Assembly: GCA_902571005.1 (NCBI GenBank)
Contig: CACGAG010000007.1
Coordinates: 12,162-76,161, forward strand
Direction of reading: 5' to 3'
DNA length: 64,000 nucleotides
Source of the DNA: an uncultured Pelagibacteraceae bacterium
GTDB taxonomy: Bacteria; Pseudomonadota; Alphaproteobacteria; Pelagibacterales; AG-422-B15
Shown: piece after piece, positions 31,933 through 54,431 of the stretch
Numbering within the stretch: position 1 is the first letter of the stretch
Layout: every line of letters begins with the position of its first letter
Made by a program: the position numbers and the translations under genes
The notes under the pieces: generated by a model
Database searches by the model: none
What the model was told of the DNA's origin: nothing
Seen by the model: the letters and a program-made list of their open reading frames with translations, nothing else

Positions 31933-31955
31933 AATGCTGTAAATGAGTGTACCGC

Positions 31956-32005
31956 TTAAGCCACGCGAATTTTCAATTGCACTGCTTGGCTTAATTTTGC
32001 AGCGC
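31956..32005 (-). promoter_or_regulatory. candidate H-type pseudoknot RNA in the leader of the MetF-like/GcvT operon
   Basis: Two interleaved helices: TTAAGCCA/TGGCTTAA (8 bp) and GCACTGC/GCAGCGC (7 bp). The second helix is fully paired only in the minus-strand RNA, where the odd pair is G-U. Confidence 0.3.
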
Positions 32006-32122
32006 TATTTGAGTCTCCTAAAACAAAATTTAAGTAAAAATTTGTTCTATAGCAATACATTTTTGTAGACTCCTATCTGTAAAGTTCTTAAGTTGTCTAG
32101 GTTTTTAATATTAGTATTATTT

Positions 32123-39824: not shown

Positions 39825-40344
39825 TTTAATTAAAAAATTATTTGCACTTGTATTCATTGGGTTTTCACTTCATCTAGTGATGATTTACTACACACCTAGT
39901 TTAATGATGAAGTTTATCGGAAGAAATTGGGAAGAGCAAAATATGATTAATAATTCCTTTGCTCGCGATTTACCTGACTCAGAATTTACTGAAGTTATAA
40001 GACCAAGCGCTGACATACTTTATGGTGGATGTGCTTATGACGTTACTTACTTTCCATTGGTTATAGAAACTGAAGTACCTGAGTCTTACTGGTCGATATC
40101 ATTCTTTTCAGAAAACACTGACAACTTTTCTACAATAAATGAAAATGCGCACAACTTTGGTAAGCTTAAAATTTATTTGTTTGGGCCAAATTCTATGCCA
40201 ACAAAGGTAAATGATGGGTTTATTGTTGTTTCCCCGTCTAATAAAGGCCTTATGTTAATGAGACAATTTATAGGAAATGGTTCTAAACTTGATAAATTAA
40301 ATGAGATACAAAATAGTTTAGACTGTCAACTTGAGGGTTCTTAA
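39817..40344 (+). CDS. membrane-anchored DUF1254-like protein
   Basis: N-terminal TM helix. The track start at 39796 is a TTG. The ATG at 39817 (MSNLIKK) has GGAG 8 nt upstream and an ATGAGTAA overlap with the upstream stop. Confidence 0.45.
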
Positions 40345-40661
40345 AACTGCTTCTCAGGCATATTAACAACTAAACCGTCTAGCTCATCAGAGACAGTAAT
40401 TTGACAACTTAATCTGCTGTTATCTTTGACGTCGAAAGCAAAATCTAGCATATCTTCCTCTGAGTCCTCTTTCGGAGGCAGTTTTTCTATCCATTCTTTT
40501 GCTACATATACATGACAAGTAGCACATGCACATGCACCGCCACAATCTGCATCAATACCAGGTATTTTATTCTTGATCGCACCCTCCATGACCGTCAGCC
40601 CACTACTAACATCAATTTCGTGCTCCGCGCCGCTAAATTCGATGTATTTGATCTTTGCCAT
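40341..40661 (-). CDS. adrenodoxin-type [2Fe-2S] ferredoxin
   Basis: [12 protein letters not shown] plus the distal Cys (LSCQI). The start was re-set to [11 protein letters not shown] at 40661. The 19-codon track extension looks spurious. Confidence 0.85.
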
Positions 40662-40716
40662 TGAGATTTTTTTAAGAATATTTAAAAATGTATTGCTTAA
40701 GGGGATCAAATACATC

Positions 40717-40759
40717 AAAAAAGCGCCAAAGCAAGAATTTTCTCACTTTAGCGCTTTTT
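40717..40759 (-). terminator. intrinsic terminator in the ferredoxin leader
   Basis: The minus-strand RNA GCGCUAAAGUGAGA-AAAU-UCUUGCUUUGGCGC forms a 14-bp stem including 3 G-U pairs, followed by U6. In the plus-strand RNA the three wobbles become A-C mismatches. Confidence 0.55.
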
Positions 40760-40830
40760 CTGGGGCCGGTCGAACCCCGAAACGCATGAACGTCTCATTG
40801 CGAATGGTCATTCTAGAAAGGTATTTTTTT
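40760..40830 (-). promoter_or_regulatory. GC-rich structured leader (candidate riboswitch, attenuator or small RNA)
   Basis: A local GC island in an AT-rich gap. It has a GGGG/CCCC hairpin, two further hairpins, and a GCGUUUC segment able to pair with the 5' arm of the terminator. Confidence 0.3.
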
Positions 40831-40911
40831 GAAACAAGGGGTTATTTATGCAAAAAAGTTATCCACACGAATTAAGCACACTTATCCCCATTCAAACATT
40901 AACTTATTAAC

Positions 40912-41907
40912 ATGATATCAAAGCCGTATTTATTATTTCTTGGAGACGCAAAAGATGATTTGGCAATAAAGACTGCTGCGGGCGTTAATTACTGGCGTCC
41001 AGATTGGTGTATCGGTCAAATGAGCCTTCCAAATGCCAAATCTAGCTTAGGTTTACAGGAAATGAGTATAGAAGAAGCTGTTAAGAATGGTGCAAAGACA
41101 TTTGTTATTGGCGTGGTGAATGCCGGGGGCGTTATGCCTGAAGAATGGAAATCAATTATAATTAATGCAATATCATCTGGAATGAATGTAGCCAGCGGAA
41201 TGCATACAAAACTATCCTCGTTTAGTGAAATTGCAGAAGCGGCTGAAAGAAATAATGTTCAACTTCATGATTTACGGTTTAGCAATAAACAATTTCAGAC
41301 AGGAAAAGGAATAAAACGATCAGGCAAAAGACTCCTTACTGTTGGAACAGATTGTTCTGTGGGAAAGAAATATACAGCACTCGCAATTGAAAGTGCGATG
41401 CAGAGTAATCAAATAGATGCATCTTTCAAAGCAACTGGACAAACTGGAATCTTAATAGCAGAAAATGGCATTGCAATTGATGCTATCGTTTCTGATTTTA
41501 TCTCAGGAGCAGTCGAATGGTTATCGCCTGACAATGATGATAATCACTGGGATATTATTGAAGGTCAGGGATCTCTGTTTCACCCTTCATTCGCAGGAGT
41601 TTCACTTGGATTGCTTCATGGAAGCCAACCGGATGCATTTGTTGTATGTCATGAACCAACACGAACTAATATGAGGGGTGTGGATACACCTTTACCGAGC
41701 ATCAGAGAGGTTATCGATCAGACAATACAAAATGGCAAGCTTACTAATAAGCAAATACAATGCATTGGCATCGCACTTAATACATCTAATTGTCAATCTG
41801 AGGCAAGTGATCATAAGGACAGATTATCTAAAGAATATGGCTTACCATGTTTGGACCCTTTACAAGACAGCCTTGATCCATTCATTCAGATTATTGAAAA
41901 AATTTGA
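40912..41907 (+). CDS. DUF1611-family protein (DgcN-like N-acetyltransferase)
   Basis: About 330 aa with the PYLLFLGDA...GTDCSVGKKYTA P-loop-like pattern typical of DUF1611. It is adjacent to an enolase-superfamily epimerase. Confidence 0.65.
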   Translation: MISKPYLLFLGDAKDDLAIKTAAGVNYWRPDWCIGQMSLPNAKSSLGLQEMSIEEAVKNGAKTFVIGVVNAGGVMPEEWKSIIINAISSGMNVASGMHTKLSSFSEIAEAAERNNVQLHDLRFSNKQFQTGKGIKRSGKRLLTVGTDCSVGKKYTALAIESAMQSNQIDASFKATGQTGILIAENGIAIDAIVSDFISGAVEWLSPDNDDNHWDIIEGQGSLFHPSFAGVSLGLLHGSQPDAFVVCHEPTRTNMRGVDTPLPSIREVIDQTIQNGKLTNKQIQCIGIALNTSNCQSEASDHKDRLSKEYGLPCLDPLQDSLDPFIQIIEKI

Positions 41908-53660: not shown

Positions 53661-53741
53661 TAAATTTCCTCCAATTTGAAATAAACAGAGAGATAGGGTC
53701 TATTAAAATTACTAAATGAGCAAGAAAAATGTTAGTTTTAC

Positions 53742-53972
53742 TTATTTTTTTTGAAGTCTATTCCAAAGATATATAATGATTGCTACAGAAATTATACCCA
53801 CAACACCCTCACTACCTAGTTGGTTGATTAAACCTACTAAGTTCTGAGTAATATTTTTTCCTAAAAAAGGTGATGATGGTCCAAAGAGCACTTCTAAAAT
53901 TATAGCTATTGCTATCAACAATAAGCCAAAATCAATGATTTCTCTTAGTATTTGCTTAATTCTTGAGATCAT
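53742..53972 (-). CDS. small two-helix membrane protein, paralogue 1
   Basis: 76 aa. It aligns by eye along its full length with the 54025-54240 product (shared ...PF.G.NI..N.V.L.NQLG..GVVG.I.V...). Confidence 0.5.
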   Translation of the reverse strand: MISRIKQILREIIDFGLLLIAIAIILEVLFGPSSPFLGKNITQNLVGLINQLGSEGVVGIISVAIIIYLWNRLQKK

Positions 53973-53984
53973 ATGCTAATTTTT

Positions 53985-54018
53985 TATCACCTCCCATGCG
54001 CAAACATGGGAAGTGATA
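53985..54018 (-). other. 14-bp stem-loop between the two small-protein genes
   Basis: TATCACCTCCCATG / CATGGGAAGTGATA with a 6-nt loop. The single odd pair is G-U in the minus-strand RNA and C-A in the plus. The minus-strand 3' arm contains GGAGGUGAU. Confidence 0.5.
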
Positions 54019-54024
54019 ATATGT

Positions 54025-54240
54025 TTAATCTCTGAATAACCAGAGAATAACACCAACAGCAATTAATCCAACAACTCCGGCATTTCCTAACTGGTTCACA
54101 AGAGATACGATATTGCTAGCTATATTGCCAACAAATGGAATGCTTCCTCCGCTTAGCAGGCCAATAACAATACCCAAAGCTAGCAGTGAAAGACCAAGAC
54201 TGGTTAGAGCCTTTATTGCGTTCTGTGCGTTTCTAATCAT
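54025..54240 (-). CDS. small two-helix membrane protein, paralogue 2
   Basis: 71 aa, preceded by GAGGGGGAAAG (SD-like) and a 191-nt non-coding leader. Confidence 0.5.
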   Translation of the reverse strand: MIRNAQNAIKALTSLGLSLLALGIVIGLLSGGSIPFVGNIASNIVSLVNQLGNAGVVGLIAVGVILWLFRD

Positions 54241-54431
54241 AACTTTCCCCCTCGTTATGTTTATTTAGATAGCAGTACTATATTTAGTACATAAATGAAC
54301 ACTATATTCAAAATGTGGTAAAACAAGTTTCTTTTATAATTTAAGTAATTGAATTTATTTGATTTTTCATAATATTTTTAAAAATGTCACATTTATACAA
54401 CATTATTTTGTACATCTACACGGGATTGATT

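Follow-up and report, generated by a model that had tools for sequence, protein, structure and literature searches.

What does a marine bacterium keep in a non-coding gap of 250 nt, when the median spacing of the genes around it is 3 nt? The question is raised by positions 40662-40911 of a stretch of 64,000 nt from an uncultured Pelagibacteraceae bacterium of the SAR11 group (contig CACGAG010000007.1; this whole stretch is called the window in the following). The gap is bounded by fdx, the gene of a 2Fe-2S ferredoxin, on the minus strand (ATG at 40661) and by a DUF1611 gene on the plus strand (ATG at 40912). A sequence-only reading of the window had singled it out as the largest gap and had placed there a structured leader that would switch between terminator and antiterminator, or else a stand-alone small RNA. 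It is indeed the longest truly non-coding gap; the single larger hole in the crude gene map (53661-54431) contains two small open reading frames (ORFs). We found in the gap a previously undescribed RNA element of about 85 nt, which, judged from the comparison of related loci, is real and under selection. The terminator/antiterminator switch was not supported, and the stand-alone small RNA (sRNA), which had been the fallback, is now favoured: we see about an even chance that the element is an independent sRNA gene on the ferredoxin strand.

The element is composed of P1, a linker, P2, an A-rich linker, the terminator and a U6 tract, in that order:

40717-40802, minus strand: the whole RNA element, about 85 nt.
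40783-40802, minus strand: P1, a weak hairpin (-4.5 kcal/mol), CGCA(A)UGAG-ACG-UUCAUGCG.
40762-40778, minus strand: P2, a nearly invariant hairpin (-7.3 kcal/mol), GGGGUUCGACCGGCCCC (DNA GGGGTTCGACCGGCCCC), that is GGGGUU-CGACC-GGCCCC.
40723-40754, minus strand: the core of the terminator stem-loop, 13-15 bp, GCGCUAAAGUGAG / CUUGCUUUGGCGC, from the terminator scan.
40717-40722, minus strand: the U6 tract, the predicted 3' end of the RNA, from the terminator scan.

In total the element is present in 51 loci with 30 distinct sequences, which form about 11 sequence families (A to K). All of these loci are from uncultured Pelagibacteraceae, and in each of them the element lies directly upstream of, and co-oriented with, the same 2Fe-2S ferredoxin gene. 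The loci were collected by a protein-anchored scan of a genome collection with one genome per species, by a DNA-pattern scan of metagenomes that was blind to gene context, and by two ferredoxin homologue searches. The protein-anchored scan revealed the element upstream of fdx in nine Pelagibacteraceae genomes (L001-L009). The DNA pattern gave 25 matches, of which 24 are true and one is a chance GC-rich match; all true matches run on into the fdx start, except for one contig that ends just before it. Further families beyond the reach of the pattern were added by the homologue searches with context look-ups. Relaxed-pattern matches on two viral contigs (L081, L082) were dismissed as chance.

The covariance model R1 scores the element of the window with 108 bits (E 4e-27). 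With the same model the element is absent from 71 further fdx loci (63 not labelled Pelagibacteraceae and eight labelled as such), where the weak matches are terminator look-alikes. In five of these eight Pelagibacteraceae loci fdx follows, by sequence, a rhodopsin gene, which Pfam confirmed for one of them. Among the loci of the genome-collection scan, the Ia-type SAR11 loci lack the element according to R1. A second copy was found neither in the window, by a P1-P2-only model (R2) with filters off, nor in 263 kb of related loci, and the P2 sequence is unique in the window at up to three mismatches (chance expectation 0.01).

The comparison of 11 family representatives points to selection on the element. 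Nucleotide identity is 83% in P1-P2 and 77% in the terminator vs. 58-60% in the flanking intergenic DNA; among the same representatives fdx is 75.5% identical in its coding sequence and 51% at third codon positions. RNAalifold, applied to an unbiased MAFFT alignment, returned three hairpins, which are the base of P1, P2 and the terminator. In the specified structure 95.7-95.8% of the cells are standard pairs, compared to 35-52% when the partners are slid by one to three columns.

The three hairpins vary in different ways. In the terminator stem 94.9% of the cells are paired and four pairs have changed on both sides: one shows G-C, G-U and A-U, two show C-G, U-G and U-A, and one occurs in four pair types (U-G, A-U, C-G, U-A). 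In P1 95.5% are paired, with a base, CGCA/UGCG, that hardly varies. Purine swaps opposite U (A-U to G-U) are found in columns 10 and 11, family J has one change from C-G to U-G, and in families G and I the apex is replaced (CGCAU-UUUUU-AUGCG) with the hairpin preserved. P2 is paired in 98.3% of the cells and has one-sided changes only (basal G-C to G-U, U-G to C-G, U-G to U-A). Its two U-G pairs are retained in 27-28 of the 30 sequences, and in family K the loop is changed from C to A. The stems of P1 and P2 are as invariant as their loops. The sequence-only reading had proposed to judge its helices by covariation and conservation in relatives: the element is conserved and its terminator has four compensatory pairs, but P1 and P2 have changed on one side only. 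The freely covarying terminator as opposed to the sequence-invariant P1 and P2 suggests that the 5' 45 nt are recognised by their sequence.

P1 and P2 lie in a local GC island (40760-40815), which had been noted before and has 55% GC vs. 34% for the window. Of the hairpins drawn there, GGGG...CCCC is P2 and was recovered. The first conserved hairpin, however, is CGCA/UGCG (40802-40783) and not the minimum-free-energy hairpin GAGACGU/GCGUUUC. The latter is paired in 89% of the cells, but it cannot form in the short-P1 families G and I. For that reason CGCA/UGCG was preferred as P1, and GAGACGU/GCGUUUC is probably a mere alternative fold.

The 3' part of the element, a GC-rich stem-loop with an immediate run of U on the transcribed strand, is a predicted intrinsic (Rho-independent) terminator ending at 40717. 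A hairpin at 40723-40754 followed by U6 about 55 nt before the fdx ATG had already been read from the letters, and the terminator scan agreed. With its A/U extension the stem (40760..40717) comprises 20 pairs, six of them G-C, and in its core 40754-40742 pair with 40735-40723. Six U followed directly by G or A are found in 50 of the 51 loci, the sole exception being L117 with UUCUCU. Across the loci the U tract ends 52-77 nt before the ATG of fdx.

Three G-U pairs in the terminator of the window (U40750-G40727, U40745-G40732 and G40744-U40733), from which a function on the minus strand had been argued, proved to be real. Over all paired positions of the alignment there are 151 G-U cells vs. 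seven A-C cells, and the functional strand is therefore the ferredoxin strand. The terminator including its A/U extension folds with -25.6 kcal/mol on the minus strand vs. -15.8 kcal/mol on the plus strand; for the whole gap the fold z-scores against shuffled sequences are -4.4 and -1.75, respectively. These numbers bear on the idea of a plus-strand function, either as a leader of DUF1611 (e.g. SAM-II-like) or as a terminator that works in both directions and ends the convergent DUF1254 transcript, which we consider extremely improbable. It could be based on a weak SAM-II match at 40684-40739 (plus strand, 18.8 bits, E 0.39), which was rejected, as it does not come near the gathering threshold of 44 and lies on the strand excluded by the G-U evidence. 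It could also be based on the A-tract on one side and the T-tract on the other side of the hairpin, but families J and K have lost the A-tract, and the hairpin is 10 kcal/mol weaker in this direction. A further point in its favour is that the 3' end of fdx overlaps the convergent DUF1254 gene by 4 nt (40341-40344), so that there is no room between them for a terminator of either gene. Inside the fdx coding sequence the terminator scan listed a plus-strand terminator-like hairpin (40457-40478), which might be the end of the DUF1214/DUF1254 transcript.

A leader of DUF1611 is also at odds with family F (L116 1033-1349, L117), in which DUF1611 is lost while the element and fdx are kept, so that the element is no appendage of this gene. 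The remnant of DUF1611 in family F consists of the first codons only (GGCTTTGATACC without ATG); the MR-MLE gene has taken the place of the divergent neighbour, across an intergenic region enlarged to 317 nt.

Another explanation is that the element is a cis-acting leader or attenuator of fdx. The mRNA would start at about 40802, P1-P2 would sense a small ligand or, more likely, an RNA-binding protein, and the terminator at 40717 would stop most transcripts unless a signal permits read-through; the terminated product may itself act as an sRNA. We regard this as possible, though rather doubtful. In 51 of 51 loci, including the 24 true matches of the DNA pattern, the element adjoins fdx in equal orientation, and it stays with fdx when DUF1611 is lost, both of which favour a leader. 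The nascent-transcript folds, which show several near-isoenergetic alternatives between the 3' half of P1 and the 5' arm of the terminator, are in its favour as well. The antiterminator, however, is not conserved, the terminator is very strong with its -25.6 kcal/mol, P1 and P2 are invariant, unlike typical covarying aptamers, and there is no match in Rfam.

The antiterminator GCGUUUC...GAAA...CGC of the sequence-only reading had to be abandoned. The pairing of GCGUUUC with GAAA..GCGC, which encloses P2, is drawable, but it has 6 + 4 broken cells and zero compensatory changes. Where the 5' arm of the terminator has changed (G to A, and C to U at the next position), the change is compensated in the 3' arm and not in the antiterminator partner. 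In nine of ten families the duplex of the upstream region with the terminator 5' arm is no more stable than with dinucleotide shuffles (z about -1), and in families J and K the A-rich linker that the antiterminator requires is replaced. A second register (AUGC with GCAU/GCGU, reaching into the P1 loop) is drawable in many families; it has shuffle-level energy and is reduced to 4 bp in J and K. By inspection no loop-tail complementarity for an H-type pseudoknot of the preQ1-I or SAM-II type was seen, and a pairing of the post-terminator sequence GAUCCCC/GAACC with the 5' arm of P2 is found in families A, B and D but missing in E, F and G, for which reason it was discarded. A ligand-driven terminator/antiterminator architecture is not supported; the main rival of the independent sRNA is a leader in which a trans factor, such as a protein, would be needed for read-through.

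The sequence-only reading had stated correctly that no minus-strand gene lies upstream, and its conclusion that the RNA starts inside the gap is supported by a promoter-like pair of hexamers, the -10 of which ends 7 nt before the predicted RNA. A second promoter-like module was found between the terminator and fdx:

40832-40837, minus strand: -35-like hexamer TTGTTT of the putative RNA promoter, a consensus match.
40810-40815, minus strand: -10-like hexamer TAGAAT of the putative RNA promoter, N16 from the -35-like hexamer, a consensus match.
40679-40709, minus strand: module that may serve as a promoter of fdx, with TTGATC at 40709-40704, N19, TAAATA at 40684-40679 and 17 nt to the ATG.

For the upstream pair, a relaxed scan gave, in families A, B, E and F and at an equal position, TTGTTT, TTGTAG or TTGTTA, N16-17 and TAGAAT or TAAAAT. 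Exactly 7 nt separate the end of the -10 from the C of CGCA in six loci of these four families (the window, L003, L007, L085, L086 and L089); in L091, L008 and L088 this spacing is 5, 6 or 8 nt. No promoter site was seen by the relaxed scan at the corresponding position of L005 and L009. In family G1 the equivalent region contains a perfect TTGACA. From these positions we infer a 5' end at about 40802 (40803-40800) and a length of about 85 nt.

The downstream module keeps its distance to the start codon. In families A, H, B, D, E, C, J and K a TAAWTA hexamer (GAATTA in D) has its end 17 nt from the ATG; in G and I this spacing is 16-19 nt. A TTGAYC-like hexamer precedes TAAWTA by 16-19 nt in six of the families (A, H, B, D, G, I). 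In the window the module begins 8 nt downstream of the terminator. In families G and I the terminator lies about 22 nt further from fdx, and the distance between module and ATG is unchanged. An Ia-type locus with room for a promoter, L047, has TTGCCG-N16-TATAAG 15 nt before the ATG, a geometry that matches the fdx module. A separate fdx promoter is thus plausible. That the module is tied to the ATG weakens the idea that transcription of fdx must read through the terminator, which counts against a leader, and it is the main reason why an independent sRNA is favoured.

In other Ia-type SAR11 loci the upstream region of fdx is short. In L019, L044, L063 and L075 fdx follows the terminator of a rhodopsin gene (Bac_rhodopsin) by only 17-30 nt, and in L034 it follows another upstream gene as closely. 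The hexamer TTATAT is found 7 nt before the fdx ATG in L019, L044 and L034 and 9 nt before it in L063. This arrangement suggests a leaderless ferredoxin mRNA in the Ia-type loci, or an expression via read-through of the terminator.

As an independent sRNA gene the element would work as follows. A sigma-70-type promoter, TTGTTT-N16-TAGAAT, would start the RNA at about 40802. The RNA of about 85 nt would fold into the weak 5' hairpin P1 and the nearly invariant, GC-rich P2, and would be ended at 40717 by an efficient intrinsic terminator. Its functional part would be the 5' 45 nt (P1-P2), in which the sequence itself and not merely the pairing is held constant, and which would serve for recognition by a protein or a complementary RNA as partner and not as a switch. 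The gene fdx would be transcribed mainly from its own proximal promoter-like module; the terminator would insulate this promoter from the transcription of the RNA, and some read-through may add to the expression of fdx. The discrete transcript, the use of both promoters and the action on a partner in trans are all inferred from sequence.

Several observations weigh against an independent sRNA. In every locus it lies next to fdx and in its direction, as a leader would; this is tempered by the synteny, which is conserved throughout the clade anyway. In the element, P1 and P2 are without any double compensatory change and are supported by wobble-compatible changes and one replacement of the P1 apex. 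A stricter promoter scan found no promoter on the minus strand of the window, and both promoters have been assigned by consensus in a genome that is rich in AT. TAAWTA, without the final T that is usual, is a poor -10, and the -35 of the fdx module is unrecognisable in five families. Of the two promoters, it is the one upstream of the element that is the clearer and is conserved in position, which is rather in line with a leader. Neither a target or partner in the 64-kb window nor, as said above, a second copy of the element was found. The target search gave one 11-nt complement in the window, where about 1.3 are expected by chance, and neither 8-mer complementarity nor RNAduplex, the latter against 60-odd start regions, singled out a target. 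Furthermore, SAR11 are known mainly for cis-acting RNAs in long GC-rich spacers (PMC2704228, PMC6429828); this heavy reliance on cis-regulation speaks for a leader and against a stand-alone sRNA.

The two explanations are not mutually exclusive, as is exemplified by leader-derived sRNAs such as UpsM of Rhodobacter sphaeroides, which according to title and abstract is an sRNA within the extended 5' leader of the dcw cluster (PMC5089854). As far as this description goes, UpsM resembles the element in being an alphaproteobacterial sRNA that is co-oriented with and just upstream of a gene and can be read both as leader and as sRNA; it differs in its context, which is cell division instead of ferredoxin, and there is no sequence relationship (PMC5089854). 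On the side of a leader, we also consider, with little confidence, an attenuator not described before with P1-P2 as its sensor, be it as a riboswitch of a new class or as the target of an antiterminator that binds RNA. In this abundant, uncultured SAR11 lineage the ferredoxin level would then follow a redox, iron or Fe-S signal, and the terminated 85-nt product might also act in trans.

The invariance of P1 and P2 would also be expected if both were protein sites in the DNA. The palindrome of P1 (CGCATGA-N5-TCATGCG) and P2 would then be bound by an iron, Fe-S or DnaA-type regulator in a control region of fdx and DUF1611, and the hairpin with its T-tract would only insulate fdx from upstream transcription. 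P1 is a DNA palindrome in the long as well as in the short families, and DnaA-box-like repeats form a conserved cluster 55-110 bp upstream. Nevertheless, we judge such a DNA-level feature to be unlikely. The excess of G-U over A-C cells (151 vs. 7) includes P1 and P2, where the tandem U-G is kept and purines change opposite U; the conserved bulged A in P1 and the position directly after the promoter fit an RNA better. By inspection there is no match to the consensus of ICE, RirA or IscR (PMC1698941), as the spacing here is TGA-N5-TCA and not TGA-N9-TCA.

The DnaA-box-like repeats themselves lie between the start codon of DUF1611 and the putative promoter of the RNA, at 40859-40867, 40882-40890 and 40904-40912 (plus strand), in one orientation and about 22 bp apart. 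They read TTATCCACA, which is the sole perfect copy in the window, then TTATCCCCA and TTATTAACA. Repeats of the type TGTGGATAA/TGTTGATAA are found at the corresponding place in every family and are kept in family F, which is without DUF1611. A replication origin at the repeats was rejected: the minus strand holds most genes on either side of the gap, and the cumulative GC skew keeps falling across it.

We also looked for a coding function of the element. An ORF of 16 codons, MRRSCVSGFDRPQKKR (40748-40798, minus strand), has its AUG at 40798 inside P1 and its UAA inside the 5' arm of the terminator. Its translation could control the terminator by the position of the ribosome, as in leader-peptide attenuation, or yield a small protein. 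Although the ORF is present in the family of the window and ends inside the terminator arm, this explanation is refuted by non-conservation and has next to no probability: family C has AUG-UAA, families G and I have no such AUG, and in family B a 1-nt deletion causes a frameshift. In addition, the AUG would be only about 4 nt from the 5' end assumed above, without a ribosome-binding site. By these comparisons the RNA element is one without a conserved ORF.

The sequence-only reading had found no known riboswitch class for the gap, and Rfam 15 did not provide one: at the gathering threshold neither the window nor any of nine related loci gave a hit, and when the gap was searched at E up to 10, the top matches of the minus strand reached 10-17 bits vs. 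thresholds of 40-113. ARAGORN found no tRNA or tmRNA gene in the window. P2 (40762-40778, minus strand) includes GGGGUUCGA, which we take to be a sequence typical of the 5' side and the loop of a tRNA T-arm. The loop-closing geometry of P2 does not fit the 5-bp stem and 7-nt loop of a T-arm, and the resemblance is a lead only.

Alphaproteobacteria possess stand-alone sRNA genes with their own promoter and a Rho-independent terminator, for example the alpha-r/AbcR-type sRNAs. The element resembles stand-alone bacterial sRNA genes in its length of about 85 nt, the adjacent upstream promoter (here a consensus match), the missing conserved ORF, the 5' part as the most conserved one, the stem-loop and U-tract at the 3' end and the restriction to one lineage. 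It differs from them in being tightly tied to one downstream gene, and it has no sequence or structure match in Rfam 15. With the SAM-V, glycine and HMP-PP riboswitch candidates of SAR11 it shares a long GC-rich spacer in an AT-rich streamlined genome, a co-oriented gene and an intrinsic terminator (PMC2704228, PMC6429828, PMC5069720). In contrast to these candidates its stems are invariant rather than covarying, it has no conserved switching helix, and it is absent from Ia-type loci. A ferredoxin or fdx motif is mentioned in neither of the two surveys of structured RNAs in SAR11 (PMC2704228, PMC6429828).

With respect to its neighbours, fdx (40341-40661, minus strand) encodes a protein of 106 aa with a Pfam Fer2 domain (E 8e-11), which is 100% identical to the ferredoxin of the single-cell genome AG-891-J04. 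It is a lone minus-strand gene, whose 5' side faces the divergent pair of DUF1611 and MR-MLE genes (dgcN/dgcA-like). A gene for a flavoprotein of the thioredoxin-reductase type, similar to ferredoxin-NADP reductases, is located 1.5 kb from fdx. In the crude gene map the second-ranking divergent non-coding gap has 160 nt (31933-32092). The apparent gap of 771 nt mentioned at the beginning is occupied by two neighbouring minus-strand ORFs, 53742-53972 and 54025-54240, which encode similar hydrophobic proteins of 76 and 71 aa (...LVNQLG(S/N)(E/A)GVVG(I/L)I(S/A)V...).

SAR11 bacteria are among the most abundant organisms of the ocean, and they get by with very few transcription factors and hardly any spare DNA. 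Since their genomes are streamlined and the RNA is more strongly conserved than the neighbouring protein gene, the stretch of 190 bp that holds the promoter and the 85-nt RNA is very likely functional. To our knowledge the known regulatory RNAs of SAR11 are nearly all riboswitches from cultured Ia strains. The element described here belongs to uncultured lineages and adjoins a ferredoxin gene, and with the covariance models and the alignment of 30 sequences it is directly testable in metatranscriptomes. Should it be an sRNA, it would be one of the rare cases in which a streamlined genome may use RNA control in trans; should it be an attenuator, a new sensor would be added that is connected with the redox or iron economy of the open ocean.

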